DNA of 28,023 nt from a virus (Duplodnaviria; Caudoviricetes), in IMG/VR virus record IMGVR_UViG_3300020042_004274, positions 1-28,023 of that record, one strand, 5' to 3'. The notes under the pieces are model-generated. The model searched no databases. It saw nothing but the letters and a program-made list of their open reading frames with translations, and was not told the origin of the DNA. Both the position numbers and the translations under genes were made by a program. This document shows positions 1 through 28,023 of this stretch, one piece after another (position 1 is the stretch's first letter; every line of letters begins with the position of its first letter).

Positions 1-707
1 CTACGGCTGGTGAAACAATCAACGGTTCGCTTAGACTTCTAGGTGTTCTGGCAGAAGGCGAAACTCCATCGGCTGAAACGTCGCAGGACGCACTGCGCGC
101 CATGAACCAGATGATTGATAGTTGGAACACTGAGCGCCTTGCTGTGTACGCTACGCAAGACCAAGTTTTCACATGGCCTTCCGGTGTAATTAACCGCACG
201 CTTGGGCCAACCGGCAACTTTGTTGGCAACCGTCCTATCTTGTTGGATGACGCTACGTATTTTGTTGAAACCGGCACTGGGGTTAGCTACGGCGTTCAGA
301 TAATTAACCAAGCGCAATATGACGGCATCGCGGTTAAAAGTTCAACATCTACGTTTCCTGAAGTTATTTATGTCAACATGACATATCCTGACATTGATAT
401 GTTTATTTACCCGCGCCCAACAATGAATCTAGAATGGCATTTCATTTCGGTTGAAGAACTGACACAGCCAGCAACGCTTGACACAGTCCTTTCATTCCCG
501 CCCGGCTATCTGCGTGCGTTCCGCTATAACCTAGCGTGCGAACTAGCACCTGAGTTTGGCGAAGAGCCGTCGCCACAAGTTCAGCGCATTGCTATGTATT
601 CCAAGCGCAACCTGAAGCGCATCAACAATCCTGATGACATCATGTCGATGCCGTACAGCCTTATTGCATCGCGCCAGCGGTATAACATTTTTGCAGGAAA
701 CTACTAA
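1..707 (+). CDS. Head-to-tail adaptor, P22 gp4-like packaged-DNA stabilization protein (5' truncated)
   Basis: The frame is open from position 3 (TAGETINGSLRLLGVLAEGETPSAETSQDALRAMNQMIDSW), so the start lies upstream of the window and not at 102. The N-terminal 'LRLLGVLA.GE.P...D.L..LN.M.DSW' and C-terminal 'PPGY..A..YNLA.ELAPEFG' are typical of gp4-like adaptors. It lies directly before a gp10-like gene. Confidence 0.8.
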   Translation, partial: TAGETINGSLRLLGVLAEGETPSAETSQDALRAMNQMIDSWNTERLAVYATQDQVFTWPSGVINRTLGPTGNFVGNRPILLDDATYFVETGTGVSYGVQIINQAQYDGIAVKSSTSTFPEVIYVNMTYPDIDMFIYPRPTMNLEWHFISVEELTQPATLDTVLSFPPGYLRAFRYNLACELAPEFGEEPSPQVQRIAMYSKRNLKRINNPDDIMSMPYSLIASRQRYNIFAGNY

Positions 708-2239
708 TGAAGACGCCCATACTGGGCAGCGCGTATGTGGCCCGTTCAGTAAACGCTGCCAACGCACGCATGGTAAACTTGTTTCCCGAAGTGGTGCCAG
801 AAGGCGGCATAGAGCCGGCGTTTATCCAACGTTGCCCCGGCTTGCAGCTTCAGCAGGTTGTTGGCGAAGGCCCGATCCGCGGGTTGTGGGCGCACCAGAC
901 GCAAGGCACTGATTTCTACGTTGTATCAGGGTTTGAAGTCTACAAACTGTCCAGCCTTACTGGAACACCTGTCAAGCTGGGCGACGTAACTGGCACTGGC
1001 CCTGTATCTATTGCTGACAACGGTTTGCAGATTTTCTTTGCCTGCAATCCTGACGCATACATTTACACTGAGTCAACCAACACGTTTTCGCAGATTACCG
1101 ACCCTGACTTTCCCGGTGCGGCTACTGTCGCATACTTGGATGGTTATTTTGTGTTTAACGAACCAGACAGTCAGCGGATTTGGGTAACGCAAATTTACGA
1201 CGGTTTTGAGGTTGACCCGCTAGAGTTTGCCAGCGCCGAAGGTAGCCCTGACGGCGTCGTTGGCCTGTTGGTAGATCACCGCGAATGTTGGGTGTTTGGC
1301 ACCGACTCGACCGAAGTGTGGTACAACTCTGGCGGTATAGATTTCCCGCTGTCACCAATTCAAGGCGCGTTCAACGAAATCGGTTGCGCTGCGCCATACT
1401 CCATCGCCAAGATGGACAACACTGTGTTCTGGCTGGGCGCTGACGCGCGCGGCCAAGGCGTCATTTACAGGGCTGCGGGCTATAGCGCGCAGCGTATTTC
1501 TACGCACGCAATTGAATGGCAAATCCAAAACTATCTAGATATGAGCGACGCTGTAGGTTACACCTACCAGCAGGACGGCCATGCGTTCTACGTCCTGTCG
1601 TTCCCGTCCGCGGATGAAACTTGGGTGTACGACGCTGCCACCGGCGCATGGCATCAGCGGTCATCTTACTCTGCCATTGCACCGGGCGAAGGCGCGTTTG
1701 AAGCCGAATCATTTTATTCAAGTGCGTTCTACGTTGTACAACCACTTACGCCTTCTGGCGTCAGCGGTGCGTTCTCACGCCATCGCAGCAACTGCCAGTG
1801 CAACTTCCAAGGTAACATCATTGTCGGTGACTACGCCAACGGCAACATCTACACGTTTGAGTTAAATGTTTTTGAAGACAATGGAATAGCGCAGCGTTGG
1901 CTGCGGTCATGGCGCGCGCTGCCGACAGGCCAGAACAATCTCACGCGTACAGCAAACCATAGCTTGCAGCTTCAGTGCGAAACAGGCGTTGGCATAAACG
2001 ACGGCCAAGGCGACGATCCGCAAGCTATGCTCCGCTGGTCCGACGATGGCGGCCATACATGGTCCAACGAACACTGGGCAGCTATGGGCAAGATAGGCGC
2101 AACTGGCACCCGTGTTATTTGGCGCCGGCTTGGCATGACGCTGAAGCTGCGCGACCGCGTCTACGAAGTGTCTGGCAGTGACCCTGTCCGCATCTACTTG
2201 ACCGGCGCTGAATTGCAATTGAGCGGCACAAATGCCTAA
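707..2239 (+). CDS. Tail nozzle, P22 gp10-like DNA stabilization protein
   Basis: 510 aa with gp10-like motifs (NLFPE, YLDGYFVF, FASAEGSPD, STEVW, RISTHAIE, YQQDGHAFYVL, LRWSDDGGHTW, WRRLG). TAATG coupling to the adaptor. Confidence 0.9.
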   Translation: MKTPILGSAYVARSVNAANARMVNLFPEVVPEGGIEPAFIQRCPGLQLQQVVGEGPIRGLWAHQTQGTDFYVVSGFEVYKLSSLTGTPVKLGDVTGTGPVSIADNGLQIFFACNPDAYIYTESTNTFSQITDPDFPGAATVAYLDGYFVFNEPDSQRIWVTQIYDGFEVDPLEFASAEGSPDGVVGLLVDHRECWVFGTDSTEVWYNSGGIDFPLSPIQGAFNEIGCAAPYSIAKMDNTVFWLGADARGQGVIYRAAGYSAQRISTHAIEWQIQNYLDMSDAVGYTYQQDGHAFYVLSFPSADETWVYDAATGAWHQRSSYSAIAPGEGAFEAESFYSSAFYVVQPLTPSGVSGAFSRHRSNCQCNFQGNIIVGDYANGNIYTFELNVFEDNGIAQRWLRSWRALPTGQNNLTRTANHSLQLQCETGVGINDGQGDDPQAMLRWSDDGGHTWSNEHWAAMGKIGATGTRVIWRRLGMTLKLRDRVYEVSGSDPVRIYLTGAELQLSGTNA

Positions 2240-2879
2240 CACTCAACTCACTCGTATCCCCGCGTCGCGTGTGCCGGTTATTAACGCAGCAACCGGCATA
2301 ATGACGCGTGAGTGGTACAGGTATTTATTCAACCTCTTTACACTAGCGGGTGGCGGACAAGCTAACTCGGCGGCAAGTTCGTCTATGGGGCAAGACTTGG
2401 CCCCGCTGTACACGCCGCAACTTGAAGATAACCGCCACGGCGTGTTCTTTGACACAACCACACAAACAGCCGCTGCCATCAATACAGCGTATCCAATAAC
2501 GCTTAACACCACAAGCATAACTGATGGCGTCTACATCGGCGCAACTACATCGCAAGTGTTTGTGGACCGCATACGCACTTACAACTTTCAGTTTTCCGCG
2601 CAACTTATCAAAGCCAGCGTTGGCACAGGAAATGTTTTTATTTGGTACAGAGTAAATGGTGTTGACGCGGCAAACTCTGCAAGAAAAGTAACTTTAGCCG
2701 GAAGTAGCGCGGTAGTTGTCGCCGCAGGCAATTATGTGGTAAAGCTAAACGCCGGTGATTATTTTCAATTGGTTTTTTCTACTGATGATACAGGTTGCCA
2801 AATTGTTGCAGTGGCTGCTGCCGCCCCTGCCCCCGCAATTCCGTCCGTTATCCTGACGGCCACTAGTAACTTTAATTGA
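2232..2879 (+). CDS. Virion tail protein (needle/short-fibre position) with C-terminal C1q/TNF-like beta-sandwich
   Basis: Follows the nozzle. N-terminal 'P.SRVP.....G.MTREWYR.L'. The C-terminal pattern 'GVFFDTTTQTAAAINTAYPIT...YNFQFSAQL...LNAGDYFQL' resembles C1q-like trimeric heads. Confidence 0.55.
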   Translation: MPNTQLTRIPASRVPVINAATGIMTREWYRYLFNLFTLAGGGQANSAASSSMGQDLAPLYTPQLEDNRHGVFFDTTTQTAAAINTAYPITLNTTSITDGVYIGATTSQVFVDRIRTYNFQFSAQLIKASVGTGNVFIWYRVNGVDAANSARKVTLAGSSAVVVAAGNYVVKLNAGDYFQLVFSTDDTGCQIVAVAAAAPAPAIPSVILTATSNFN

Positions 2880-2888
2880 GGCCTAGCT

Positions 2889-3677
2889 ATGACTGTTCTT
2901 GCTCAACAACCTAAAGCACAATTCTTCGATGCTAACGGTAGCCCGTTGGTCGGCGGCAAGGTCTATACCTATGCAGCCGGTACGACAACGCCGTTGGACA
3001 CGTACACTGATGCGTCGGGGATTACACCCAACACCAACCCAGTTATTCTGGACTCCCGCGGCGAATGTAACCTGTGGTTCTCTACAGCTACTAGCTACAA
3101 GGTAATCTTGGAAAGCGCGACTAACGTGCTGCAATGGTCCGTTGATAACATTGCGACCTACGGCTCCATTACCAGCCAGAACTCCAACAACGTGGCTATT
3201 ACCGGTGGCACAATCACCGGCGTTACGTTTACAGGTAACATCACCGGCAACGCATCCGGCAACGCGGGCACTGTGACAAACGGCGTCTATCTGACAGCCA
3301 CGCAGACGCTGACAAACAAGACCATCACAGGTCTGGCTTCGGCGTCAACGGTTAATGACAGCCTTGGTACGGAATACACCATCGGCTACCGCAGCGTCCC
3401 GCAAAGCCTGAACACAACCGCTGCGGCGTCAGACATCGGAAAGCATCTGTTTGTTTCCGTGACTACCACAGTTCCGTCAGGCGTGTTTGTATCGGGTAAC
3501 GAGTTTCTTGTGGTCAACAGCAGCGCCGTTGCTGTAACACTCACACAGGGCACTGGAACGACGCTACGGCTCGGCGGCACTGCAACCACAGGCAACCGTA
3601 CCATTGCCGCCTACGGCGTTGCTAACGTGCTGTGTACCGGCGCTGAAACTTTCTACGTCACTGGCAACGTAACCTAA
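2889..3677 (+). CDS. Short tail fibre/spike with N-terminal virion-anchoring domain
   Basis: The N-terminus 'QFFDANGSPLVGGKVYTYAAGTTTP..TYTD....NTNPVILDSRGE' is a common podovirus fibre attachment domain. Fibre motifs 'NNVAITGGTITG' and 'TQTLTNKTI' are present. Confidence 0.75.
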   Translation: MTVLAQQPKAQFFDANGSPLVGGKVYTYAAGTTTPLDTYTDASGITPNTNPVILDSRGECNLWFSTATSYKVILESATNVLQWSVDNIATYGSITSQNSNNVAITGGTITGVTFTGNITGNASGNAGTVTNGVYLTATQTLTNKTITGLASASTVNDSLGTEYTIGYRSVPQSLNTTAAASDIGKHLFVSVTTTVPSGVFVSGNEFLVVNSSAVAVTLTQGTGTTLRLGGTATTGNRTIAAYGVANVLCTGAETFYVTGNVT

Positions 3678-3689
3678 TAGGATCGGCTC

Positions 3690-4028
3690 ATGGCAATTAT
3701 CGCAACAAATATCATCCCTGCTAAGAACATGGAAAACACGCAGACTACGCAGTATGTGTCGCCAAGCAGCACCACAACTATCATTGACAAGTTCACAGCT
3801 ACCAACTTTAGTAGTGGCATGGTCAACGTAAGCGTCAACTTGACAGCGGCTGGCGCCGCGGCTGGCAACAGCAACTTGATCGTCAAGACGCGGACACTGC
3901 AAGCCGGCGAGACTTACACCTTTCCTGAAATCGTAGGTCACATCCTGCCGTCCGGCGGGTTTGTCTCTACGCTTGCGTCAGCGGCAGCGGCAGTCAACTT
4001 GCGTGCGTCTGGACGCGAGATTAGTTAA
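3690..4028 (+). CDS. Small beta-rich virion protein (fibre-associated)
   Basis: 112 aa with upstream AGGA. Beta-strand pattern is similar to that of 15248-15562. Lies after a fibre gene. Confidence 0.5.
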   Translation: MAIIATNIIPAKNMENTQTTQYVSPSSTTTIIDKFTATNFSSGMVNVSVNLTAAGAAAGNSNLIVKTRTLQAGETYTFPEIVGHILPSGGFVSTLASAAAAVNLRASGREIS

Positions 4029-4570
4029 TGCAAAATTTCCTACGCATTGCTGACGGGCTAAATACATCTTCTGTCTTACGGGAGTTAGTCACGCAGCCAG
4101 AGTTATGGAACCAGAATACACTTCGCACCAGCCATCCTGACACCGCTCATGCAGACGTTAGCGACATTTGGCTGTGGTTTAACGCAATCCCTGACACGCC
4201 TGACGGTGTTATTAACGACATCCAGACGGTCGAGTATCCTGCGTGGGCGCGCCTGCCGTCGCTGCGCCGCATGGTGTTGGACCTGATCCACCGCGTCAAC
4301 GGCGTCCAGCTTGGCCGCTGCATCATTACCAAACTGCCGTCCGGCGGTGAGATTACGCCGCACGTTGACGGCGGCGCTCCAGCAGAGTTTTACATCCGCT
4401 ACCAGATTGCACTTCAGTCCCTGCCCGGCGCGCTATTTCACAGCGGCGACGAAACGGTTAACTTCCGCGGCGGCGAAATATGGTGGATCAATAATCGCGT
4501 AACACATTCTGTTGTAAATAACAGCGCAGATGATAGGATAGTCTGCATTGTAGACATCAGGAGCGCATAA
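4028..4570 (+). CDS. Aspartyl/asparaginyl beta-hydroxylase-family 2OG-Fe(II) dioxygenase
   Basis: HxD motif (ITPHVD), distal His (WWINNRVTHSVVN) and 2OG-binding Arg (DDRIVCIVD). TAATG coupling at both ends. Confidence 0.85.
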   Translation: MQNFLRIADGLNTSSVLRELVTQPELWNQNTLRTSHPDTAHADVSDIWLWFNAIPDTPDGVINDIQTVEYPAWARLPSLRRMVLDLIHRVNGVQLGRCIITKLPSGGEITPHVDGGAPAEFYIRYQIALQSLPGALFHSGDETVNFRGGEIWWINNRVTHSVVNNSADDRIVCIVDIRSA

Positions 4571-5025
4571 TGATAACGGCACAAGTTGAAGATTGGGCAC
4601 CTTTTATTGAAGAAGCGCAACCGTTGCTACCTTTGCATTGGGAAGAATTGGCGCTCAACAAAGATAAAGTTCCGCTTGATCCGCAGTACGACCTTTACGC
4701 TGTCCGCGATAACGCCGGGCAAGTGCTAGTGGTGACGCTGCGCGAAACTGGCCGTTTAGTGGGATATTTTATTGGTTTTATTGCGCCGGGGCTACACTAC
4801 CAAACGTGCCTGACGCTGACAATGGACATCTTTTGGACGCACCCAGATGTGCGCGGTGGATTTAGTGGTGTAAAACTCTTTCGTTTAGTTGAAAAAGAGG
4901 CTAAAAGGAGAGGCGTGCATCGTATGTTTTACGGTTCTAAATTTCACAAAGACGCTTCACGTCTATTTGAGTTTTTAAAGATGGAACCTGTAGAGACATA
5001 TTACAGCAAATGGATCGGGGAATAA
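4570..5025 (+). CDS. GNAT-family acetyltransferase-like protein
   Basis: GNAT motif A-like 'DIFWTHPDVRGGFSGVKLFRLVEKEAKRRGV' and 'RLFEFLKM'. Lies just before the ejection genes. Confidence 0.75.
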   Translation: MITAQVEDWAPFIEEAQPLLPLHWEELALNKDKVPLDPQYDLYAVRDNAGQVLVVTLRETGRLVGYFIGFIAPGLHYQTCLTLTMDIFWTHPDVRGGFSGVKLFRLVEKEAKRRGVHRMFYGSKFHKDASRLFEFLKMEPVETYYSKWIGE

Positions 5026-5026: not shown

Positions 5027-6517
5027 ATGGTCGCAGTAGTAGCCGGAGCGGCAGCATTAAGCGCAGGGGTATCCATTGGCGCATCTAAAAAAGCGGCTGC
5101 CGCACAAGTAGCCGCGTCCAATACGGCAGCAGCAGCGCAAGAGCGTGCAGCGGCGCTGGCGTTAGAGGCACAGCGCACCGCGTCGGCTGAAGCCATTGCG
5201 GCGGCAAAAGAAGCAGCGGCAATAGCGCAGCAAGCGCAGAATGAAGCAAACAGCCAAGCGCAAAACTTGGAACGCGTGCGTCTTAATGAAGCGCGCGCTG
5301 CGGACGAGATAGCGTTTAAAGCCGCGCAAGCAGCCTCGGACAAGGGATACGACGCCGCTCAAGAGGCGTATAGGACTTCATACGCCGCCGCAATGGCGGC
5401 TAGTGATGCGGGTTATGACACCGCACTAGCTGACGCCAATAAAGGTTTTGACACCGCCCTAACCGACGCCAACAGGGGTTATGACGAGGCTCAAACCGCC
5501 GCGGAATTGGGATATACTACTGCTCAAGGTGATTACGAAACAGCGTACCGGCGGCAGGGCGAATTTCAAGACCCGTATATAAAAAGCGGCCTTACTGCCC
5601 AAGAGCAGATTATGCAGCTTATGGGTATTGGCGGCGACAAGACCGCTGCCAATTACGGCCAATACGCTAAGGCTTTTGGCGTAGATAATTTTGAAAAAGA
5701 CCCCGGATATGCTTTCCGTCAAGAGGAAGGTTTAAGAGGGTTAGATCGGTCAGCGTCTGCACGCGGGGGCATACTGTCTGGCGGCGCGTTAAAAAACATC
5801 CAGCGGTTCGGTCAAGACTTAGCCAGCCAAGAATACAACAACGCGTTCAACCGCTACCAGACTGAGCGCGCTGCCCGCCTTAACACGCTTGGCGGCATAT
5901 CAGCTTCGGGGCAGGCAGCGTCAAATGTTATGACGAACGCTGCGGGGCAGCTTGGCTCAAACAACGCGGCAAACGCTTTGGCGCGGGCGCAGGCGACATC
6001 TGCAAACTCTATAGGGCGCGGGATTACAACAGGCAATATTGCTGTAAATCGCGGGTTAACAACTGGCAATATAGCTACGCAACGCGGCGCAACAAAGTCA
6101 TCAAATCTATTAAACCTTGGCGAAGCAACCGCCGGAATTGGTTTGGCGCGCGGTAATACAGCATCCACAAATGCTTTAAACTTTGGCGCGTCAACCAAAG
6201 CAAACGATGCAAGATATTACGGCACAGTAAGCGGTCTTACGCTAGACCGAGGCACGAACACCGCAAATAATGCGTTCTACGTTTCAGACGCAGCGCAACG
6301 CGGCGCGCAGAACATAGGCAACGCTGCGTCAGCAAGCGCGTACAATACCGGTAACGCGTTAGCCAACAATGCTATAAGCACAGGTAACGCGCGCGCGTCT
6401 GGTTACGCAGGGACAGCTAACGCGTTTAACAACGCCATTGGCCAGATAACGGGCTATGCTATGCAGGCGCCTTTGAATAACGCTGTACTGGCGTACTACA
6501 GAAACAGAACTGTTTAA
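5027..6517 (+). CDS. DNA ejection/pilot protein (P22 gp7-like)
   Basis: Ala/Gly/Asn/Gln-rich, hydrophobic N-terminus, core 'DPGYAFRQEEG.....RSASARGG.LSG.ALK...FGQDLASQEY' and C-terminal 'GNARASGY'. Confidence 0.75.
   Translation: MVAVVAGAAALSAGVSIGASKKAAAAQVAASNTAAAAQERAAALALEAQRTASAEAIAAAKEAAAIAQQAQNEANSQAQNLERVRLNEARAADEIAFKAAQAASDKGYDAAQEAYRTSYAAAMAASDAGYDTALADANKGFDTALTDANRGYDEAQTAAELGYTTAQGDYETAYRRQGEFQDPYIKSGLTAQEQIMQLMGIGGDKTAANYGQYAKAFGVDNFEKDPGYAFRQEEGLRGLDRSASARGGILSGGALKNIQRFGQDLASQEYNNAFNRYQTERAARLNTLGGISASGQAASNVMTNAAGQLGSNNAANALARAQATSANSIGRGITTGNIAVNRGLTTGNIATQRGATKSSNLLNLGEATAGIGLARGNTASTNALNFGASTKANDARYYGTVSGLTLDRGTNTANNAFYVSDAAQRGAQNIGNAASASAYNTGNALANNAISTGNARASGYAGTANAFNNAIGQITGYAMQAPLNNAVLAYYRNRTV
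5330..5550 (+). repeat. 11-aa (33-nt) periodic coding repeat, D.GYD.A-type
   Basis: ASDAGYDTALA / DANKGFDTALT / DANRGYDEAQT / AAELGYTTAQG. A 33-nt DNA period is visible around 5411-5485. Confidence 0.75.
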
Positions 6518-6537
6518 TCGCCAAAAGGTTTATTGAT

Positions 6538-8286
6538 ATGCCAAACCAAATAATGCCTAAGATAAACTTGCTCCAGATGCCTGACCCAGCAGCGCGGACA
6601 ACAAAATACGCCAACATGATGAACATGGCGTCACAACAGCGCGCGGCACAGCTTCAGAGTCAGCGCACGGAGCAGGGAATCAAATTCGACGCAAACGCCG
6701 AAACGCGCGAGGCGAATAAGTTTGACGCGGAACAACCTGTAAGAGTAGCGGGCGCATTAGGCGGCGGCTTGATAAATATATTACGCACACCCACCGATGC
6801 AAGCATAATGCAGGCCGGCCAAACTTTTGCCGCAGTTGGCATGGAGCCTGATAAATACGAACCCATACTAAAACAAATAATGAGTATACCTGATCCAAAC
6901 GAACGTAAACTGTTTGTAACGCAGTTCGTAGCGCAATCAGAAGCTGCCCGCGCCGCGCTTAGCTTTGTCATGCCTAAAACAAAAGAAATAAAGGTTGGTG
7001 ATGATACGGTAGTTGTAGATGACAACGCTAACTCAGAAACTTTTGGGCAAGAACTGTTCAGAATTAACGTAACGCCAGAGCCGGTTAGCTTGAACCAACA
7101 AGTCGTTGGGGAAAAGCTATTTAACGTAAACCCCAGAACTGGCGTCGCCGCCGAAGCACTTGTCGGTGATCCTAATCAAGGTCTTACTCCCCGCGCACGC
7201 CCAGCTAATCTTATAAGTTCTGGCGCTACGTCGCGATACGCAGTCGGCGGCGGCGCCGGGCAGCCCCGAATGGAGCAACCTGTTACACCTACTCCGCCAG
7301 CAGCCGTTGGTGGCCCATCTCGTAACCTTGGCACGCCCGGTACGGGCGGCGATACATTTAGCAGAATGATACGTCAGGAATCTCGCGGTAATCAGTTTAA
7401 CCGCAGCGGAAAGCCGCTTACATCGTCAGCGGGCGCTATTGGTATTGCTCAGGTTATGCCAAAGACGGCGCCGGAAGCTGCTAAGTTGGCTGGCCTACCA
7501 TTCGATGACAACCGTTACCGCAACGACCGTGAATACAATCTTGCGCTTGGCAAAGCCTACTACGAAAAGCAGTTGGCCGACTTTGGTGACGAGCGTCTGG
7601 CTGCTGCTGCGTACAACGCTGGCCCCGGCGCCGTGCGTAGCGCACTGAAAAAAGGCGGCCCTAATGGCTGGGTTAATCATGTCCCGAAAGAAACGCGTGA
7701 CTATCTTAAAAATGTGTTTGGTGGTGCAGGTACGCCTACAGGTGGTGCAGGCACGCCTACAGGTGCAGGTACGCCGACAGGTACAGGTACAGGCACGCCA
7801 TTAACTGTCAGTGAATCGGTTAAACTGCCGGGCAAAAAGCGCGTTTCAAACATCGTGGCTGATATGATTAAGGAATATGATATACTTAACGACGCTAAAG
7901 CTATCCCGTCTTCTCAGCGCGGCGCGATGGAAAATATTTTTGATTATGTTAGCGTCAGCGGTTTCGGTCAAGAAATACAAAAAGCGTTTGGTACTAAAGC
8001 CAACGACTCACTATCAAACATTACAAATGCACGTAAGTTGTTGACATCCGCAATAGCTGCCGCGACAGGTATGACATCAAAACAAATGGACTCTAACAGA
8101 GAACTTCAACTTACACTGGATTCTTTGTCAGACCCCACCCAAGGGTATAAATCCGTTATAGATACGTTAATGCGTTTAGACCGCGAATATGGTTTGGGTA
8201 ACGCACGCCCACGGACGCCCACCCCCGCGGCTGGCGGATCAAAAGGTAAAGGTAAACCGCCTCTCAAATCTTTCCGTAGGAAGTAA
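6538..8286 (+). CDS. Ejection protein with soluble lytic transglycosylase (SLT) domain
   Basis: SLT motifs at about 7366-7720: catalytic 'QES', 'GAIGIAQVMP', 'AAYNAGPG' and 'ETRDY'. Flanked by Pro/Gly/Thr linkers. Confidence 0.85.
   Translation: MPNQIMPKINLLQMPDPAARTTKYANMMNMASQQRAAQLQSQRTEQGIKFDANAETREANKFDAEQPVRVAGALGGGLINILRTPTDASIMQAGQTFAAVGMEPDKYEPILKQIMSIPDPNERKLFVTQFVAQSEAARAALSFVMPKTKEIKVGDDTVVVDDNANSETFGQELFRINVTPEPVSLNQQVVGEKLFNVNPRTGVAAEALVGDPNQGLTPRARPANLISSGATSRYAVGGGAGQPRMEQPVTPTPPAAVGGPSRNLGTPGTGGDTFSRMIRQESRGNQFNRSGKPLTSSAGAIGIAQVMPKTAPEAAKLAGLPFDDNRYRNDREYNLALGKAYYEKQLADFGDERLAAAAYNAGPGAVRSALKKGGPNGWVNHVPKETRDYLKNVFGGAGTPTGGAGTPTGAGTPTGTGTGTPLTVSESVKLPGKKRVSNIVADMIKEYDILNDAKAIPSSQRGAMENIFDYVSVSGFGQEIQKAFGTKANDSLSNITNARKLLTSAIAAATGMTSKQMDSNRELQLTLDSLSDPTQGYKSVIDTLMRLDREYGLGNARPRTPTPAAGGSKGKGKPPLKSFRRK
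7720..7800 (+). repeat. Degenerate tandem repeat encoding a (G)GAGTPT linker
   Basis: ggtggtgcaggtacgcctaca ggtggtgcaggcacgcctaca ggtgcaggtacgccgaca ggtacaggtacaggcacgcca. Confidence 0.9.
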
Positions 8287-8288
8287 GC

Positions 8289-10225: not shown

Positions 10226-10408
10226 ATGGCTACTATCGACGAAACACAAGCGCAGCTTAACACGCACGAACAGGTCTGCGCCTTTCGGTACGAAAGTATC
10301 TGTGCGCGGATGAAGCGTCTGGAAAGCGTCGGTATGACTGCAACAGGTACGATCATTATGCTGCTGATCGGCATATTGTTTAACCTAATTCAAAAAGGCG
10401 CTGTATGA
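10226..10408 (+). CDS. Small membrane protein, holin/antiholin-like
   Basis: 60 aa, 'HEQVCAFRY' plus a short coiled coil and one C-terminal TM helix. ATGA overlap with the endolysin. Confidence 0.55.
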   Translation: MATIDETQAQLNTHEQVCAFRYESICARMKRLESVGMTATGTIIMLLIGILFNLIQKGAV

Positions 10409-10797: not shown

Positions 10798-10798
10798 C

Positions 10799-15562: not shown

Positions 15563-15564
15563 GA

Positions 15565-18411: not shown

Positions 18412-19196
18412 TGACTATTCCTACTCCTACTGTATCACTTGCAGCTAATCTCGGCACGGGCGTTTTTGGCAATGGGCTGGTCCAAGTGTTTGGCGCATCT
18501 GGCACATTCACCGTTCCATTTGGTATTAGCCGTGTTCGTGTGCGCGTCTGGGGCGCAGGGGGTATTTCTGCGCAAGCCACCAGTACGTCTGGATCGGGTG
18601 GCGGTGGCTTTGCTATGAAGGTTGTTGACGTCAGTTCAGGACCGACTGTGGCCGTCACCGTTGGGACGGCATCCGTTGGCGCTAATGGCGGAACGTCTTC
18701 ATTTGGATCTTTTGTTTCAGCCACGGGCGGCGTGGGGGCAGCGGCTGCTGCAACCACTGTCAGCGCGGGAGGCACAGGGGTTGGTGGAGACATTAACTTT
18801 ACCGGCGGTAGCGGCAACATTCCCGATTCCACCACTAATGGCGGCTCAGGCGGGGTTGCTGGCGTATTTGGAAATGGCGGAACTGGAAACACGGGGACTA
18901 CTACTATTATTACTACCCGTAACGGTAATTCTGGAGGCGGAGGCGTGTCGGCCACCGCTGTTTCCGTAGGATTGGGACTTTTTGGCTTACCAACGTCATT
19001 GGTGCCTAGCACATCTCTTGACTCTATCGGAACAGGTGCTGGAAGTGTAACTCTAAACACTTCAGCCACCAATGGTGGTGGTGGGCCGGGCGGGGTAACC
19101 CCTACCGGAGGCGGCGGGTTTCCCGGTGGCGGATCATCTTCCACGGTCGCCAACTTGGCCCTTAACAGCTACGGCCTCGTAATAGTGGAGTATTAA
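18411..19196 (+). CDS. Glycine-rich domain tail protein
   Basis: 'VFGASGTFTVP.G...VRVRVWGAGG', 'GGTSSFG', 'ATGG.G' and C-terminal 'GLVIVEY', the signature of phage glycine-rich fibre-tip domains. Confidence 0.8.
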   Translation: MTIPTPTVSLAANLGTGVFGNGLVQVFGASGTFTVPFGISRVRVRVWGAGGISAQATSTSGSGGGGFAMKVVDVSSGPTVAVTVGTASVGANGGTSSFGSFVSATGGVGAAAAATTVSAGGTGVGGDINFTGGSGNIPDSTTNGGSGGVAGVFGNGGTGNTGTTTIITTRNGNSGGGGVSATAVSVGLGLFGLPTSLVPSTSLDSIGTGAGSVTLNTSATNGGGGPGGVTPTGGGGFPGGGSSSTVANLALNSYGLVIVEY

Positions 19197-19198
19197 TC

Positions 19199-19426
19199 AT
19201 GAAAATGGCTCGTATTACCGGTGGGATTGTTGGTGACGTTATCGTCCCTGTTGATGGCTTCAGGATTGAAGAATGCTTTCACCCTGATGTTCTGGCGCAG
19301 TATGTCGCTGTCGATGGCGACGTTCAGCCCGGCTGGATTGTGACTGAGGACGGCATTGTCGCGCCTGAACCAGAGGCCCCCGCTGAGGAGGCGCCGGCTG
19401 AAGAGGCTCCTGCAGCGGTCATCTAA
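19199..19426 (+). CDS. Small partner of the Gly-rich protein (fibre assembly-like)
   Basis: 75 aa, 'MARI.GG.V.DVI...V.PGW....G...P' with an acidic EAPAE-repeat tail. GGAG RBS. Confidence 0.55.
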   Translation: MKMARITGGIVGDVIVPVDGFRIEECFHPDVLAQYVAVDGDVQPGWIVTEDGIVAPEPEAPAEEAPAEEAPAAVI

Positions 19427-21033: not shown

Positions 21034-21290
21034 TGGCGAACGTCTTTACCACCACGATTGACCCGCGCATTGTAGACAATGTTGTGGACTGGGCGGACTA
21101 TATGTTCCCGTCTATTGAAGATTTTGGCGTTCCTTCTCGTCTTATGGATGAAAGCGATTGGAAAAACTGGGCATCTGGGTTATCATCGATTGCGTCACTC
21201 GCATCTCTTGGCATTCCAGACGCATATCAGTTTGACGATTGGCACGAATGGGCAATGCGTTTTAATGAAGTGATTAGTCAGGGATCTTAG
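21033..21290 (+). CDS. Small Trp/Asp-rich conserved phage protein
   Basis: 85 aa, 'DWKNWA...PDAYQFDDWHEWA'. TAATG coupling to the nozzle. Confidence 0.6.
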   Translation: MANVFTTTIDPRIVDNVVDWADYMFPSIEDFGVPSRLMDESDWKNWASGLSSIASLASLGIPDAYQFDDWHEWAMRFNEVISQGS

Positions 21291-21292
21291 GC

Positions 21293-23533
21293 ATGTTTGA
21301 AGATTATTACTTTGATGATCCCGCCTTACAGGATGCTCTGGCTGCTGCTGGGTATTATGCCGAACCAGCACGCAGCGCGGCTGTAATGCCTTCGACCGTA
21401 CAGGCGGCTGAGCCCATTATGGGTATTGGATCTCCTGCTCTTGCAGCGCCCTACGATATAAGCAGCTTGGTTGGCTTGAACCTAAGTGGTCTAGGCGGTT
21501 TTGGCGGCGGTCGGATGGGTGGCGTAATTCAAGACCCAAATATACAGTACATCGGCGCGCCGGTATCTAACAAAGGTAACCCCACGGGAAAGATGGGCGG
21601 CAATGTTTTTGCAATGACGCCTGATCAACCGGTGCGCCTTGTTGATCTTAACACTAAAACAGTTGTGTTTGAGGGCACGGGCTACGACGCCGCACGCGAG
21701 GCGACCCGACTGGGCCAGAGCATAACCGATGCAAAGGGCCGCAAGGCATCATACGATATTCAAACCGCAGACCCGTCGGGTAAGTACACGACCGTTGCTA
21801 ACGAGAAGAGGAACAAGAGTACACTCGGTACGATTGCCGAGATCGCAGGAACCGTAGCTCCGATTGCTGCTTCGTTTATCATTCCCGGTTTAGGTCTTAC
21901 GACTCTTGGTTCCATTGGAGCAAGCGCTGGCGTTGGTGGCCTAAGCGCTGCACTCAAGGGCGATAATATCCTTAAAGGCGCGGCTCTGGGTGGCTTGTCT
22001 GCTGCTGGCGGCGAATATCTTGGCGGTCCTTTAAGTAAGATTGGGGCCTCGAACATTGGCCTTAGAGCGGGTACTGCAATAGGCACTGGCCTCGGCTCTA
22101 CGGCAGGCGGTTTGGTTACAGGGCAGAGCTTAAAGAACTCGCTCCTTGGTGGTGTTGCTTCAGGTGCAATGAGCTACCTGTCCCCAGACATAGCTAGAGA
22201 ATTGGGAGTTGGCGGTGGATCAAGTAGCAGCAGTGGTGGTGGGCCAAACGCAGAAATTGTAGTCAACGCTAGGCCCTTCACGACTCAAAACGTAAAACTT
22301 GGCGGCTTTAAGACACCTGCAGAAAAGTATTTGACCGAAGCTGCCGCAGGAAACACAGTCGATCCCGCAACAGGCCTCCCCTATGCGGGCGATTATTCTG
22401 GCGATCTCATCAACGTAACAGGCCAGCGCCTCAGCCCCGGCGCGGTTACTGGCGGCTTAAACTTGGGTGACGTATCGCCTGAAATACTTGCTGGGATAGC
22501 TGAATTTGCAAAGAATCCTATTGTCGCTGAAGCTAACAGGCTTGAGCAATCTACTGGTAACGTAAACGTATCGCCTGAAATACTTGCTGGGATAGCTGAA
22601 TTTGCAAAGAATCCTATTGTCGCTGAAGCCAGTAAGCTCGAGCAGCCTACTCAGGGCTTTAATCTATCACCTGAAGTACTTGCTGGAATAGCGGAGTTCG
22701 CAAAGAACCCCATCATAGCTGAAGGTTCTAAGATCGAGCGGCCTACTGCTGCAGTTCCGGTTACGGGTGCTCTCGATACCGATATTGTAGTTAATGCACT
22801 TGGTAAAGAAGCAGGTTTGCCTGAGGGTTCCGTTGTCGCCGGTCTGCCTATAATGGGTCTACCAAAGATGGATCCAAACCTTACAGAAAAAACCACGCTA
22901 GAAAAAATTAAAGACGCGGCTAATCTAGCTAACGCTGTATCCGTCCTTGTCCCACTCGCCGGAGGTGTTCTTGGCGGTGGTGGTGGTGGCGGAGGCATAG
23001 GTTCCAGAGACACTACTGGCTTAAAATTTAGGGAAGGCTCTCTAAGATCCACAATTGGCGAGGGTTATCCCTATACGCCACAAACATATGGCCGGCGCGG
23101 TGGAGATCAAGAGACAGAGTATATGTTCTTCACCCGCGATCCTGTGACCGGAGCGCCTGTGGCAGAACCATCTGCAGCCATCAATCCGGCGGACATCCCC
23201 GTCAAAAAAGAAGGCGGCGAAATCGACGATGATATGGTAAAGCATCTCGTTGATTATCATAAGAACGGCGGTCATCGCGGCCCCGGACAGGTAAAAGGCA
23301 TCGGCAGCGGGCAGGAAGATAAGATCCCTGCATACCTATCTGATGGTGAATATGTCTGGAGCGCGCAGGATGTTTCCGATCTTGGCGATGGATCGAATCG
23401 TGAAGGCGTGCGCCGTCTTGATGAAATGCGGAAAATGGTACGCCGACAGGCTGGCCGTAAAGATGTAAAAAAGATTGCAAAACCCCAGAAGGGTATAGAT
23501 AGAATGCTTAAAGCTGTTGGAGGTATGGCGTAA
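21293..23533 (+). CDS. Putative ejection/internal virion protein with glycine-zipper region, TonB-box-like repeats and C-terminal 'G.G.GQED.IPA.LSDGEYV' domain
   Basis: 746 aa. GxxxG-rich hydrophobic segment, internal repeats, and C-terminal 'VKGIGSGQEDKIPAYLSDGEYVW.A.DVS.LGDGS...G...L..MR'. Confidence 0.65.
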   Translation: MFEDYYFDDPALQDALAAAGYYAEPARSAAVMPSTVQAAEPIMGIGSPALAAPYDISSLVGLNLSGLGGFGGGRMGGVIQDPNIQYIGAPVSNKGNPTGKMGGNVFAMTPDQPVRLVDLNTKTVVFEGTGYDAAREATRLGQSITDAKGRKASYDIQTADPSGKYTTVANEKRNKSTLGTIAEIAGTVAPIAASFIIPGLGLTTLGSIGASAGVGGLSAALKGDNILKGAALGGLSAAGGEYLGGPLSKIGASNIGLRAGTAIGTGLGSTAGGLVTGQSLKNSLLGGVASGAMSYLSPDIARELGVGGGSSSSSGGGPNAEIVVNARPFTTQNVKLGGFKTPAEKYLTEAAAGNTVDPATGLPYAGDYSGDLINVTGQRLSPGAVTGGLNLGDVSPEILAGIAEFAKNPIVAEANRLEQSTGNVNVSPEILAGIAEFAKNPIVAEASKLEQPTQGFNLSPEVLAGIAEFAKNPIIAEGSKIERPTAAVPVTGALDTDIVVNALGKEAGLPEGSVVAGLPIMGLPKMDPNLTEKTTLEKIKDAANLANAVSVLVPLAGGVLGGGGGGGGIGSRDTTGLKFREGSLRSTIGEGYPYTPQTYGRRGGDQETEYMFFTRDPVTGAPVAEPSAAINPADIPVKKEGGEIDDDMVKHLVDYHKNGGHRGPGQVKGIGSGQEDKIPAYLSDGEYVWSAQDVSDLGDGSNREGVRRLDEMRKMVRRQAGRKDVKKIAKPQKGIDRMLKAVGGMA
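22470..22745 (+). repeat. 3 x 96-nt (32-aa) tandem repeat
   Basis: The 64 nt at 22470-22533 are identical to 22566-22629. A diverged third copy starts at 22662. Encodes SPEILAGIAEFAKNPIVAEA..LEQ. Confidence 0.95.
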
Positions 23534-24474
23534 TGGCTATCACAGAAACCGTCACACAAACCAAGCTACCCCAGTGGCTGGTTGATGCCTACACCAAGAG
23601 CATCGAAAGAGGCTATGAGGCTACGACTACGCCTTATCAGCCCTATACTGGTGGCCCCCGCCTCGCTGCTGTTTCTCCGCAGGAGCAGCAAGCCTATCAG
23701 ATGACATCTGAGAATGTTGGGAACTATCAGCCATACACGCAGGCTGCTGGTGACTACATTGCAGGCGGCACCCAATCATTCACTGATCCGGGCGTCGCAT
23801 CTAGTTATATGAACCCATACACCCAGAACGTCGTCTCTGGTATTGGTGAAGCAGCTGGTCGGAACCTGTACGAGAATCTATTGCCTGCTGTTAATCGCAC
23901 ATTCACTGGTGGTGGTACGTTTGGTGGTAGCCGGAGCGCTGAGTTTACAGCCCGCGCTGTTCGCGATGCAAATTCTGCAGCTCTTTCGGCACAGAATGAG
24001 GCTCTCCAAAAGGGTTATGAGAGCGGCATGGGTCAGTTCAACACTGAGGCTGGTCGTTACCTCACGGCAGCTGAGCGGGCACAGAGCCTTGGTCGTGACG
24101 TTCAGAACTTAGCCGGTGTGGATACTGCCGCGCTTGAGGCTGCTGGCTCAGCACAGCGTGGGTTCGAGCAGGAATCGCTTAATTTAGCGAAATCTGATTT
24201 TGATGCCCAGCGTGATTATGATTACAATCAAGCTCTACGCTTTCAGAATTTTGTTGGCACACCAAGCGCACAGGGTGCCGGTACTCGTTACGAGCAGGCT
24301 CCCGGCGTAAGTAATACGGCGTCAACAATCGGCGCTGTTGCAAGCGGCATTGGCGCGCTGTCGAACTTGTTCGGTGGGCCCAAGAAGATCAAGGGTGGCG
24401 GTCCTGTTGGCGCCGATGGCAAGCGTAACATCAAGCACCCGATGCACGGACTTGGATGGTTGAAGGGCAAATAA
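23533..24474 (+). CDS. Putative ejection/pilot protein
   Basis: 313 aa, Ala/Gln/Gly-rich, with 'PYQPYTG', 'YMNPYTQNVV' and 'GTFGGSR' motifs typical of podovirus internal proteins. Confidence 0.7.
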   Translation: MAITETVTQTKLPQWLVDAYTKSIERGYEATTTPYQPYTGGPRLAAVSPQEQQAYQMTSENVGNYQPYTQAAGDYIAGGTQSFTDPGVASSYMNPYTQNVVSGIGEAAGRNLYENLLPAVNRTFTGGGTFGGSRSAEFTARAVRDANSAALSAQNEALQKGYESGMGQFNTEAGRYLTAAERAQSLGRDVQNLAGVDTAALEAAGSAQRGFEQESLNLAKSDFDAQRDYDYNQALRFQNFVGTPSAQGAGTRYEQAPGVSNTASTIGAVASGIGALSNLFGGPKKIKGGGPVGADGKRNIKHPMHGLGWLKGK

Positions 24475-24475
24475 G

Positions 24476-26281
24476 ATGGCGATGACAATCCAGCAAGCGC
24501 AATTAGCTGCGATGCAGCTGCGGGCTAAACGGCCTGAGCTGCAGAACATGGCTGTTGGTGATCTGGTCGCTCAAATTATGGCGTCTGAAGGGGAGGGGCA
24601 GCCGGGTGCTGGTGGTGGCGGCCTTGCTAATCTGTTCGCAACTCCGCTGAGCCCAGCTTCTCCAGCGCCTATGGAGGCTGCACGGCTTGTGGCACCGAAG
24701 CCGACGGCTCAGATGTTTCCGGCTGCGAATGCAAGCAAAGCTCCTAATCCACTTTCTTGGATGGGTGCGAATCCGTCTTCTGGATATGGTGCCAAGCGCC
24801 CAACAGGATCTCATCAAGGGATAGATTATCCCGTTCCTAAAGGTACGCCTATTGGCACCCCTGCTCCGGGTGTGGTGGAAGTTGCAAAGAGCGATCCCAT
24901 TAACGGCAACTATGTAGTTGTACGCCACCCCAATGGTCAATCAACGTCTTACAGTCATCTCGATGGGATTGGTGTTGAGCCGGGGCAGTCTGTTAATGCG
25001 GGTGATGTTCTAGGTACTTCGGGTAATACCGGGCGAGTGCGTGGTAAGAACGGTGGCTACCATCTCCATCTTGGCGCTCGTGATGAAAAGAATAACCGGA
25101 TTGATCCTAGACGAATCCTCAAGGATCCATCTGTACTTGGCGTTGCTAGGGAGGGCACGGATCCTGTGCGTACAGCTGCGGTCGCTGCAGCTGCTCCTCA
25201 GGCAGTAGCCGTAGCTGCTCCTACGGGTGAGACAATGGCTGCGCCAAAGGGCGAACCATCTCGCTTTAGGCCCATGTTTGAGCAGAAGCAGGCTGAACTT
25301 CAGCAGCTGAAGGCGTCTATACCAGCTGGCAAAGAGCCTTCTGCCGAACAGGCATCTCAGTTAAGAACACTATCTGGAGTAGTTTCTCAACTGAAGGGAT
25401 TGGTCGCAGCTGAAGAGGGCGCGGTTGTCAATGCTGAGCGTGCGGCTCTATTGGAGCGGCAGAAATCCCGCCTTGGCCGCGAAGAAGAGTTGATCGAACG
25501 GACGCGCAAACTTGCTCCCGGTAATGCTCTTATTGCGTTTGGCAATGCGCTTGCAGGCGCTAAGCCCGGTGAGAAATTTGCTTCTGCCTTAGCTCGTGGC
25601 TTACAGGCTGGTTCTGAAAGCTACACAGGCGCTCGTGATGCGCGTGAAGCATCTCTCCGTGGCATTGAAGAGAAGCGTGATGCGTTTACCCTGCAGAAAA
25701 TTGACGCGCTCCAGAAAGCTCGCGATGAAGCAATTCGCTTAGCTGATTCTGGAGTTCAGATGACTAGAGATCAGCTTACTCTAGCGGGCCTAGAGGATGC
25801 AGATATTGTTAATTTAGCCACTCAAGAAGATAGAATCAGCGAAGTTGCATCAAGGGCCTCTGAAGCCAAGACTAAGGCTGATAGGGCTGGTGAATCAATT
25901 GACGCAGATATTGATGAGACGAAGGCTAGGGCCGCATATTACAGAATGGGCGGTCGTAGCGCTGACGATGGCGATAAGCCTATGACGCAGAATCAGGTCC
26001 AGACAAAAATTGGTGATCTTAGTAAAGAACGGCGCGCGTTAATGATTAAACTTAACACTGCTACAACGGTGGGCAAGGAAAGGGCTGCCGTTAATTTAGC
26101 GATAAAATATATAGATATTGAGATTGAAAAGTTGATGGGAGGTCGGCCTGCTGCTCCGGCTAAGGCTGCTCCGTCTGGAGGTAATCCTCCGGTTCCAAAC
26201 GCAAAATGGTCGCCTACTCAAAAAGGATGGTTTATTCCAGATCCCAAAAGACAGGGTAAGTATCTGCAAGTTTTTAACTAA
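24476..26281 (+). CDS. Ejection protein with peptidase M23 domain and coiled-coil C-terminus
   Basis: M23 motifs HQGID (HxxxD), GNYVVVRH, YSHL, GNTG, HLH and IDP at about 24770-25110. Confidence 0.88.
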   Translation: MAMTIQQAQLAAMQLRAKRPELQNMAVGDLVAQIMASEGEGQPGAGGGGLANLFATPLSPASPAPMEAARLVAPKPTAQMFPAANASKAPNPLSWMGANPSSGYGAKRPTGSHQGIDYPVPKGTPIGTPAPGVVEVAKSDPINGNYVVVRHPNGQSTSYSHLDGIGVEPGQSVNAGDVLGTSGNTGRVRGKNGGYHLHLGARDEKNNRIDPRRILKDPSVLGVAREGTDPVRTAAVAAAAPQAVAVAAPTGETMAAPKGEPSRFRPMFEQKQAELQQLKASIPAGKEPSAEQASQLRTLSGVVSQLKGLVAAEEGAVVNAERAALLERQKSRLGREEELIERTRKLAPGNALIAFGNALAGAKPGEKFASALARGLQAGSESYTGARDAREASLRGIEEKRDAFTLQKIDALQKARDEAIRLADSGVQMTRDQLTLAGLEDADIVNLATQEDRISEVASRASEAKTKADRAGESIDADIDETKARAAYYRMGGRSADDGDKPMTQNQVQTKIGDLSKERRALMIKLNTATTVGKERAAVNLAIKYIDIEIEKLMGGRPAAPAKAAPSGGNPPVPNAKWSPTQKGWFIPDPKRQGKYLQVFN

Positions 26282-26291
26282 AGGGTGAGCA

Positions 26292-28023
26292 ATGCCCACT
26301 TATAAGCCAGTTGACTTTGATCCGTTCGCTCCGGCAGCGCCTTCTGGCGGGGTCAAGCTGAAGCCTGTTGACTTTGATCCGTTTGCAAAGCGCGACCCTG
26401 CGGCTGATAGGGACATCGAGGAAACAAAGAAGCGCATAGCCCGTGCAAAGGCCCTGATTGCTGATTATGATAAACGGCTTTCTGATCCCAGTAAAGTTGC
26501 GGGCGGGGAGATGGTTATTGGTCTTGCGTCTGCGCGGAAGTCTGCAGCAGATAGCATTGTCACCTATGAAAAGCGGCTTAGAGAAATAGAGCGTACTGGT
26601 AAGCCTGCGCCTAATGAAAGCATAATTCAGTCTATTTCTAATCTTCCCACTGATGCTTTGCGCGGTCTTACACAATTTGCAGGCACAGCAGCTGAAGGAG
26701 CTCTTGGCTTCTTAGGCTCTGGCATGCAATATCTTGGCGCACCATTTGGCAAAGACTTGGGGCTAGAGGGTGCTGGTAAAGAAGTTTCGCAACGCGGCAA
26801 AAACACAAAAGATTATTCTAATAAAATTGTTAGAGAAAATTTTGAACGTAGCGCAGCCGCTAACTTTAGCCCCGTTACGGGCCTTATTGCTAGTACTGGT
26901 GAAGGCATTGGTAGTACAGCACCCTTTCTTCTCACAGGTGGTCTTGGTGGGGTTGCTACTAGATTATCTGCTGCAGGCCGCGCCGCTAATTTAGCGGGTG
27001 AGCTATCCAATGCCCAGAAGATTGCTAGTGCTGCAAACTACGGAATAGCTTTTGGCGGAGGATCGGGGCAAGCTGGAGAGCGGGCGCAAGAGTTCCGCGA
27101 TAAAGGTGGAACCGTATCACAGGGGCAAGAGTTTTTTGTTCGTACTGGTGGCGGAGTTCTTGGTCTTACTCAAGTCGGTGTAATAGACCGTATGCTTGAA
27201 GGGCTGCCGCCTTCTGCGCGAACTGCAGCTATCGATAGCGCAGCTAAATTTGTTGAACGCGCAACCCTTGGTCGCGTTGCTCCTCAGGCAATGTTTGAGG
27301 GCGTAAAGAAAACTATTGCAGATGTTGAAAAACTTGCCCTTGGACGAGTCCTTCTGAGCGGTATAGATGAATCTGCGCAAGAGGGTGGTGAACAGTTTGG
27401 TCAGAATGTCTTAGCCAAGACTGTATATAATCCCGACCAAGCTCTCTCTGAAGGCGTGGCAGAGAACGCATTGCTTGGTGGTATTGTTGGCGGTGTTCTT
27501 AAAGGTGGCGTCGAAGGCACGCGCAAAGTCTTTGGCTCTACAGATAATGCCACAACTCCTCCATCATCCTCACGCCCCTCACGACCGTCTGCTCCACCGC
27601 CTGCACCGCCTGCAGATATGGAAGCTCTTGCGCGGTCACTTGGCCCAGTCGGTGGTAAGATCACTCTGCAAGAACCAACCGGGCCACGGGAATACACGTT
27701 CGAGGGTATCGACGAAGACGGCGGTGTTGTCCTTGCAGATGCTGATGGCGTAATCTACTCTGAAGATCCCAGTCAGGTTCAAGCTGCAATCAAGGCCGGC
27801 GTTGTTGAGCCAGAAAGCGGCTTGGGCGGTATGGTGTTTGGCGATGATATTACTGAGGGTCTACCTGATGTGGTTGCGCCACCGCCGCCTCCGCCGCCTC
27901 CTGCTGCAGACTACGTGCCATCACCTCCGAAGCCGAAGTTTACCATCGAGGACGTACCCACCGAAGTCTTACCTATCGACGAAGATGTCGCCTCCTACAT
28001 GCAGGAATATGCGGCCACTCGCA
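26292..28023 (+). CDS. Large ejection/internal virion protein (3' truncated; absent from the supplied ORF track)
   Basis: ATG at 26292 starts MPTYKPVDFDPFAPAAPSGGVKLKPVDFDPFAKRD. The same frame reads IDESAQEGGEQFGQNVLAKTVYNPDQALSEGVAENALLGGIVGG at about 27363 and appears open to the window end. Pro-rich linkers. Confidence 0.8.
   Translation, partial: MPTYKPVDFDPFAPAAPSGGVKLKPVDFDPFAKRDPAADRDIEETKKRIARAKALIADYDKRLSDPSKVAGGEMVIGLASARKSAADSIVTYEKRLREIERTGKPAPNESIIQSISNLPTDALRGLTQFAGTAAEGALGFLGSGMQYLGAPFGKDLGLEGAGKEVSQRGKNTKDYSNKIVRENFERSAAANFSPVTGLIASTGEGIGSTAPFLLTGGLGGVATRLSAAGRAANLAGELSNAQKIASAANYGIAFGGGSGQAGERAQEFRDKGGTVSQGQEFFVRTGGGVLGLTQVGVIDRMLEGLPPSARTAAIDSAAKFVERATLGRVAPQAMFEGVKKTIADVEKLALGRVLLSGIDESAQEGGEQFGQNVLAKTVYNPDQALSEGVAENALLGGIVGGVLKGGVEGTRKVFGSTDNATTPPSSSRPSRPSAPPPAPPADMEALARSLGPVGGKITLQEPTGPREYTFEGIDEDGGVVLADADGVIYSEDPSQVQAAIKAGVVEPESGLGGMVFGDDITEGLPDVVAPPPPPPPPAADYVPSPPKPKFTIEDVPTEVLPIDEDVASYMQEYAATR

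Follow-up and report, generated by a model that had tools for sequence, protein, structure and literature searches.

The closest described counterparts of the left half of the DNA analysed here are phage DSL-LC05 (OR003940) and Rhodoferax phage P26218, podophages of 36–38 kb with P22-type Ad3/Hc3 tails and late genes in the order adaptor, nozzle, small tail genes, three DNA-transfer genes and lysis genes. In DSL-LC05, which has one annotated nozzle, the lysis genes are followed by a convergent replication arm. The right half resembles the cluster of Caulobacter phage RW, described in PMC11053796 as the proposed Riverwalkvirus (62 kb). RW encodes a terminase and portal-like genes of its own and, upstream, the adaptor-like gp76. 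According to bioRxiv 10.64898/2026.04.10.717836, podovirus adaptor rings number one to three, and in phi24B and GP4, whose tails have two rings, two adaptor genes build one tail. Titles and opening lines of abstracts yielded no podophage with two tail and ejection machines in one genome, and titles yielded nothing specific on misassembly. The 'two tail modules' of PMC10612066 belong to two subgroups of P2-like phages, not to one genome.

The window, the 28,023-base stretch analysed here, is the entire record IMGVR_UViG_3300020042_004274, which stops short of any head gene. Its 28 ORFs are all intact, tightly packed and on a single strand. A P22-type adaptor, a nozzle and three ejection genes (1–10223) lead into lysis genes and a metallophosphoesterase gene (PE), after which an SU10-type adaptor, a second nozzle and further ejection genes fill positions 12550–28023 (Table 1). 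ORF calls and searches of PHROG, Pfam and PDB agree with the ORFs, gene order, strand and identities given in the initial annotation, including an adaptor at 12550 and a nozzle at 19426. Its observation that capsid, portal and terminase genes are absent also stands: the window ORFs had no PHROG or Pfam match to any of the three, and tblastn with DSL-LC05 and Caulobacter phage RW head proteins gave no match in the window. We interpret the window as an assembly artefact in which tail genes from two unrelated freshwater phages have been fused (probability about 0.85).

Table 1. Features of the 28,023-base window, with the matches on which each assignment is based.
Feature	Position	Strand	Evidence or remark
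Family A head-tail adaptor, P22 gp4/Ad3-like, 5' truncated	1..707	+	phrog_12985 E 2e-44; phrog_637 Ad3 E 1e-9
Family A nozzle / head closure, Hc3, P22 gp10-like	707..2239	+	phrog_578 E 1e-126; PDB 9vyg E 1e-34, 7eeq E 5e-32
Three putative fibre/small tail genes (215, 262, 112 aa)	2232..4028	+	weak PHROG matches; role from position
Asp/Asn hydroxylase-like gene and GNAT acetyltransferase	4028..5025	+	PF05118 E 3e-13; PF00583 E 4e-5
Three family A ejection genes (496 aa; 582 aa with SLT domain; 644 aa)	5027..10223	+	
Lysis cassette: small membrane gene, M15 endolysin, holin-like gene, overlapping spanins	10226..11317	+	phrog_465, phrog_1275
Metallophosphoesterase (PE), common to both families, contains junction	11318..12499	+	phrog_704 E 6e-110
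Best-fitting switch from A-like to B-like	11686..11693	.	informative sites vs L328 (A), L001 (B)
119-base block identical in window, L001 (B), L081/L328/L330 (A) and L331	11888..12006	.	
Family B SU10-type adaptor, downstream of the family's two adaptor genes	12550..13203	+	PF24175 SU10_adaptor E 1e-26; PDB 7z47 E 5e-8
Family B fibre genes (675, 104, 948, 261, 75 aa), strain-variable	13206..19426	+	tail fibre PHROGs for 3/5
Family B nozzle	19426..21033	+	phrog_3287 E 7e-35; PDB nozzle 8zkk/8zkm E 7e-11
85-aa gene and four family B ejection-type genes (746; 313; 601 with M23 peptidase; 577 aa truncated)	21033..28023	+	

Judged by its sequence, the left half (module A) has the composition of a P22-type (Ad3/Hc3) short tail, with predicted adaptor, nozzle and, after the tail genes, three ejection genes, in the same order as in DSL-LC05 and P26218. 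The adaptor ORF, which runs from 3 to 707 and lacks approximately three codons at its 5' end, is 74 per cent identical to the DSL-LC05 tail adaptor and matches P22 gp4 in PDB weakly (E 0.02); the nozzle is 66 per cent identical to that of DSL-LC05 and 45 per cent to that of P26218. The order of the 215-, 262- and 112-aa genes is kept in close relatives. Matches of the first two in loci of the second family (28–43 per cent) were rejected as signs of module A and reflect shared fibre domains. No tail needle (gp26-like) was matched in PHROG or Pfam among the small genes. The first ejection gene matches phrog_598 (DNA ejection; E 2e-22) and the second carries the SLT domain PF01464 (E 8e-15); the third has no PHROG or Pfam match and is assigned by position, its closest relative being 88 per cent identical. 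In type, the lysis cassette matches that of the nearest family A relatives (87–98 per cent amino-acid identity to L081, L082 and L101).

The right half (module B) follows the gene order of RW, with adaptor (57 per cent to gp70), fibre (48 per cent to gp69), nozzle (48 per cent to gp68) and ejection genes (gp66, gp65), and its adaptor and nozzle are predicted from sequence profiles to be of the SU10/phi24B-like kind. Its ejection genes include matches to phrog_4287 (DNA ejection; E 7e-11) and PF01551 (E 1e-23); the others are assigned by position and weak matches. The five-fibre set recurs in L010, the single relative of the 948-aa gene, where the upstream genes are B-type spanins. Neither module is complete, contrary to the first description, as both window ends are truncated: 577 aa remain of the ORF at 26292, whose homologue in G048 spans 1,883 aa from stop to stop. 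Module B also lacks the upstream adaptor, the 116-aa gene and the fibre gene that precede the lysis genes in its family. That family, similarly to phi24B and GP4, has two SU10_adaptor-family genes and one nozzle, and the window holds one of these two adaptor genes. The upstream adaptor is present in 29/40 adaptor-B loci with >3.5 kb of upstream sequence and in both complete genomes examined. It is identified by Pfam and PHROG, a PDB search having returned nothing useful, and is 29 per cent identical to RW gp76, which, like the terminase and portal-like genes of RW, has no counterpart in the window.

The two modules belong to common, separate families of freshwater podophages, family A with complete records of 36.9–40.0 kb and family B with complete records of 55.0–56.8 kb. 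Each has its own terminase, portal and capsid genes and one nozzle, corroborating the earlier view that the modules derive from different lineages. Module B is not the captured cassette proposed there; in the autonomous 55-kb family it forms the right part of the late operon. Among the records searched, from which those very near the window may be missing, no independent genome with both nozzle types emerged from 329 related loci, some of which repeat a contig (129 hold the A core, 151 the B core, none both), or from whole records: nozzle A was absent from family B records (0/50 and 0/30, the control matching in 31/50) and nozzle B from family A records (0/45; control matched). Among 50 PE-bearing records, adaptor B had no match and nozzle B one weak match of 75 residues. 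This match, in G076 (family A; E 1.8e-4), was rejected as a second nozzle: it lies outside G076's own nozzle, and the only other query matching at that locus is a fibre gene. The flanks of the cores agree with this separation. B genes are absent beyond the PE in all 25 A-core loci in which a PE is followed by 800 bases or more, and a convergent minus-strand ORF follows the PE in 5/5 A-core loci inspected; the window instead runs, unlike DSL-LC05, from lysis genes into genes of a second family. Upstream of adaptor B, 39/40 loci with >3.5 kb of sequence carry B fibre and Dps-like genes, and 0/40 an A core gene. Two contigs of metagenome-assembled genomes (Burkholderiaceae, Actinomycetota) from a genome scan were discarded as host clues and are probably binned phage DNA.

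The join lies inside the PE, which adjoins the lysis genes in both families, after the ejection genes in family A and immediately 5' of the adaptor in some family B phages. With L328 and L001 as references, informative sites are 35 A and 4 B to the left of the best-fitting switch and 10 A and 90 B to its right. Two other A references left this point, near 11,690, unchanged, and the true join may be located to the right of it, in any block common to the actual parents. Exact A/B blocks of 119–170 bases exist in the PE among relatives. The exact A parent was not found, and 0 records matched a 34-base pattern taken from the switch, so that a shared block of join length is demonstrated among relatives, not between the actual parents. 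Reading frame and gene spacing are clean across the join, promoter and terminator counts between 8000 and 16000 are at chance level, and GC shows no step at the junction; composition was therefore not used as evidence.

Public sequencing runs provide a view of both halves outside this record. Four runs, found with a junction-spanning query, were drawn from 24 listed, runs with a small word share being left out. Both halves are present in 4/4 of these runs, which the junction-spanning query had itself selected. The strain-specific A:B depth ratio is 0.58, 1.31, 1.41 and 4.24, a 7-fold spread in depths of assembled contigs, to which the depths of relatives add. The halves thus vary independently between runs, at odds with the equal coverage expected of one genome carrying both modules; a coverage difference was among the refuting outcomes named in the initial annotation. 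In two of the four runs (X1 and X3) the alternative parental path is seen: a contig enters the PE from native B lysis genes, and its loose end before 11303 equals L001 3738–3767, the native B spanin end.

We hypothesize that the record follows the late operon of a 37–40 kb family A podophage and, from inside the PE, that of a 55 kb family B phage. Phages of the two families would have hosts that are identical or overlap, and would exchange the lysis/PE cassette by recombination; where a sample contained both phages, the resulting identical block would collapse in its assembly graph, and the path of the contig would enter on A and leave on B, a short-read assembler being the likely maker of the join. 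Joined records occur elsewhere in family A: G072 and G066, like the window, hold two tail modules each, and are tandem joins whose record ends recur exactly inside the record (126–127 bases). They join two strains of one family, head genes included, whereas the window joins two families via an accessory gene.

Recombination between the families within the PE does occur, and the same junction can therefore arise in vivo. In the PE tree, alleles from B contexts are intermixed with A alleles (5 label changes; 200/500 shuffles as low), L001 (B) shares exact blocks of 170 and 155 bases with L081/L330 (A), and the join is homologous and in frame. All three observations also suit a real, dead-end recombinant, in which a single PE crossover between co-infecting A and B genomes gave a cointegrate or hybrid molecule, a non-propagating intermediate of cassette exchange. 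We consider such a molecule an unlikely source of the record: the join was seen in 0/329 loci, two runs show the native B entry into the PE, and rare intermediates would be expected to dominate an assembly path only seldom.

The initial annotation had left a choice between a fusion and a phage with two virion types built on the same head. Its fusion fallback is favoured; alternative tails on one head find no support in a second record, in the location of the join in a shared PE or in the unequal depth. A viable natural hybrid, with P22-type and SU10-type tails each served by its own ejection machine, would account for the intact, one-strand, tightly packed ORFs and for the co-occurrence of the halves in four runs, and adaptor A, which matches the same PHROG (phrog_12985) as the missing upstream B adaptor, would replace that adaptor's ring. 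However, the pairwise similarity of the two adaptors is not significant (best E 0.79), no second record carries both modules, and the 7-fold variation in A:B depth is unexpected for one molecule. The A-type capsid gene is present in 29/29 nozzle-A loci having upstream sequence, and a hybrid that uses an A head would have >43 kb to accommodate even without replication genes, compared with 36.9–40.0 kb in family A. We regard this reading as very improbable. Also raised earlier, a satellite-helper composite, in which one module would be that of a parasite carried by the other or integrated into it, fits the lack of head genes in both halves of the window but deserves next to no credence: the genomes to which the two halves map are autonomous and encode terminase, portal and capsid themselves (the idea is largely refuted by the complete relatives G036, G015 and G056), no integrase was matched in PHROG or Pfam among the 28 ORFs, and the join sits inside a homologous gene.

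Were the viable hybrid real, a single genome would make two tail and ejection machines. The assembly artefact that we favour is instead a warning that, when unrelated phages swap accessory genes, in this case a PE next to the lysis genes, these can behave as repeats and fuse genomes in metagenome assemblies, giving striking, false architectures. The underlying real biology is modest: two unrelated freshwater podophage families appear to exchange a lysis/PE cassette, recently enough to leave exact shared blocks, which suggests a shared host.

The window makes up the entire virus record of 28,023 bases, and all 28 of its open reading frames lie closely packed on the plus strand. Matches to PHROG, Pfam and PDB profiles upheld the gene calls of the initial annotation, and the predicted adaptors and nozzles of both modules take their identities from such profiles. 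Downstream of the module A nozzle lie small tail genes, a hydroxylase and a GNAT gene, and then three ejection genes. The annotation had seen no capsid, portal or terminase gene between the modules; searches with PHROG and Pfam profiles and with relatives' head proteins found no head gene anywhere in the window. The hydroxylase is carried by some close relatives and missing in others, and in those without it the GNAT gene matches at only some 30%. The 948-aa protein had no match in Pfam or PHROG and is a candidate receptor-binding protein.

Features of the window and of family B relatives
Feature	Position	Strand	Evidence or remark
Ad3-type adaptor (module A)	3-707	+	PHROG profile
Hc3 nozzle (module A)	707-2239	+	PHROG profile; PDB 9vyg, 7eeq
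Asp/Asn hydroxylase-like gene and GNAT acetyltransferase	4028-5025	+	between tail and ejection genes
Lysis genes	10226-11317	+	
Metallophosphoesterase (PE)	11318-12499	+	
SU10-type adaptor (module B)	starts 12550	+	PF24175; PDB 7z47
948-aa protein among B fibre genes	15565-18411	+	strain-variable
Nozzle (module B)	starts 19426	+	PDB 8zkk; ejection-type genes after
Upstream family B adaptor	L001 332-1015; L312 4371-5057 (G036); L311 9265-9951 (G015)		

The two halves belong to separate podophage families. Family A has DSL-LC05 and Rhodoferax phage P26218 as its nearest named relatives and includes records with terminal repeats that measure 38,755, 37,903, 37,105, 40,034 and 36,938 bases. Its gene order (G056, G087) is terminase, portal, capsid, adaptor A, nozzle A, ejection, lysis, PE and replication. 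PE ends the late operon: none of the 25 A-core loci that extend 800 bases or more past PE has B genes there, and a convergent ORF follows it in the five A-core loci inspected. Because all 29 nozzle-A loci that have upstream sequence hold an A capsid gene, and A loci L163 and L164 contain exact copies of the window's first 99 bases, the DNA upstream of the window most likely carries A head genes. Family B, with the Caulobacter RW phages as nearest named relatives, has records with terminal repeats of 54,968 and 56,756 bases; in G036 the order is terminase, portal, GroES, scaffold, capsid, upstream adaptor, fibre, Dps-like gene, lysis, adaptor B, fibres, nozzle B and ejection.

The parents switch within PE. 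Specifically, when compared in 100-base intervals, the window's lysis genes are mostly 88-100% identical to those of A loci L081, L082 and L101, and identity drops to 74-81% at the 3' end of PE, whereas the values against B locus L001 are 53-71% before 11,300 and 93-100% from 11,700 on. With L328 and L001 as references, informative sites divide 35 A/4 B left of 11686/11693 and 10 A/90 B to its right, a switch point that is the best among all cut points, with a P value uncorrected for that choice, and that was recovered with L081 and L329 too. A near PE homologue stands directly 5' of adaptor B in six B contigs (L001, L014, L111, L121, L131 and L147), and two blocks of L001, 170 and 155 bases long, recur without a mismatch in A loci L081 and L330. 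In the PE tree, B alleles are dispersed among A alleles (5 changes, as low in 200 of 500 shuffles), and the window groups with L001 within an A clade. By these comparisons, PE is transferred between the families, and such transfer leaves repeats able to fuse A and B in an assembly graph. Across 11888-12006 the window is identical to L001 and to several A loci; a 40-base pattern from this stretch matches four viral and six metagenome records representing both families, with no hybrid among them.

The phosphoesterase accompanies lysis genes in both families, although some family B genomes have an unrelated one (phrog_7339; L312 1697-2743) within the lysis cassette instead; this arrangement hints at a function linked to the position. 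The same spanin-phosphoesterase cassette (84%) occurs at L352 10001-11158, on a contig of 56 kb binned with a Burkholderiaceae MAG; the contig is probably phage DNA caught in the bin. Another gene common to both families, Dps-like phrog_858 (L001 2060-2422), is located amid the structural genes of 39 of 40 family B loci; for family A loci the figure is 18 of 29.

Independent genomes with both nozzle types, a check proposed with the initial annotation, did not appear: among 329 fetched loci (certain contigs counted more than once), 129 have at least one core gene of A and 151 at least one of B, with no locus in both groups. Whole-record searches point the same way. Nozzle A was absent from B records (0/50 and 0/30; 31/50 in the control set), nozzle B from A records (0/45; control positive) and adaptor B from PE-bearing records (0/50), and nozzle B gave a single weak match of 75 residues in 50 PE-bearing records. 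These searches covered 50 of the 84 first-listed B-set loci and 50 of 79 PE-set loci, mostly the longer ones; many are fragments, completeness reaches 90% or more in 5 B-set and 29 A- or PE-set records, and those closest to the window may lie outside the searched set.

Pieces nearly identical to each half are present in public sequencing runs, and no listed contig piece covers the whole stretch in the four runs (24 listed) whose assembled contigs were compared over 4001-24000. Nor do the modules have equal coverage: A:B mean depth in strain-variable parts (6669-10003 vs 14673-19341) was 0.58, 1.31, 1.41 and 4.24, summed over all aligned contigs, with two runs shallow. Since one molecule should give a steady ratio, this variation speaks against a single molecule, as supporting rather than decisive evidence. 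In runs X1 and X3, a contig reaches the window at 11303 from another flanking sequence upstream, and the 16 and 30 letters given for that flank agree with L001 as far as 3767, where the native B spanin gene ends; both runs therefore contain a B genome that has upstream genes of its own.

Together, two autonomous families, the switch inside their common PE, the lack of a second hybrid, uneven depth and the native B path favour the fusion that the initial annotation held as a fallback. Judged from contigs, the A-B join was probably made in assembly (probability roughly 0.85). Comparable joins exist: in each of G072 (58 kb; L319-L321) and G066 (69 kb; L322-L325), both rated 100% complete, a family A or A-related tail module occurs twice, in diverged versions, and the first 126-127 bases are repeated exactly within the record; each joins two related genomes in tandem and is probably an assembly artefact. 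The independent record L163 shares the window's start base and 121 identical bases before diverging, which resembles an assembly-graph branch. Exact matches of these lengths correspond to the top k-mer settings of widely used short-read assemblers.

A real molecule with a single crossover in PE would, at the level of contigs, give the same picture as an assembly join; we consider it unlikely. The headline reading of the annotation, a viable phage with one head and two alternative tails, is very improbable given the absence of a second record and the unsteady depth. Moreover, 11.2 kb from terminase to adaptor (G087), the window's 28.0 kb and the ~3.9 kb expected to complete its truncated last gene (homologue of 1,883 aa) give a hybrid of >43 kb that still lacks replication genes, whereas family A genomes measure 36.9-40.0 kb, and a title-level literature search found no such phage. 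A satellite composite is less credible still, as both halves belong to autonomous families.

The window's module B is incomplete, for it is without the upstream adaptor gene of family B, present in 29 of 40 loci with >3.5 kb upstream. In L001, G036 and G015 this second SU10_adaptor gene (PF24175 above cut-off, also precomputed for 120 listed homologues) precedes lysis, so that the family's two such genes stand on either side of the lysis cassette. It matches one common PHROG with adaptor A, with no significant pairwise similarity between the two; its homologue RW gp76 (328 aa) has an additional galactose-binding-like domain (weak Pfam match). One study describes one to three adaptor rings per tail, with two, gp64 and gp62, in phi24B (bioRxiv 10.64898/2026.04.10.717836). 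The family B tail is likely built with two adaptor rings as well, of which the one absent from the window would, from gene order, be the portal-side ring.
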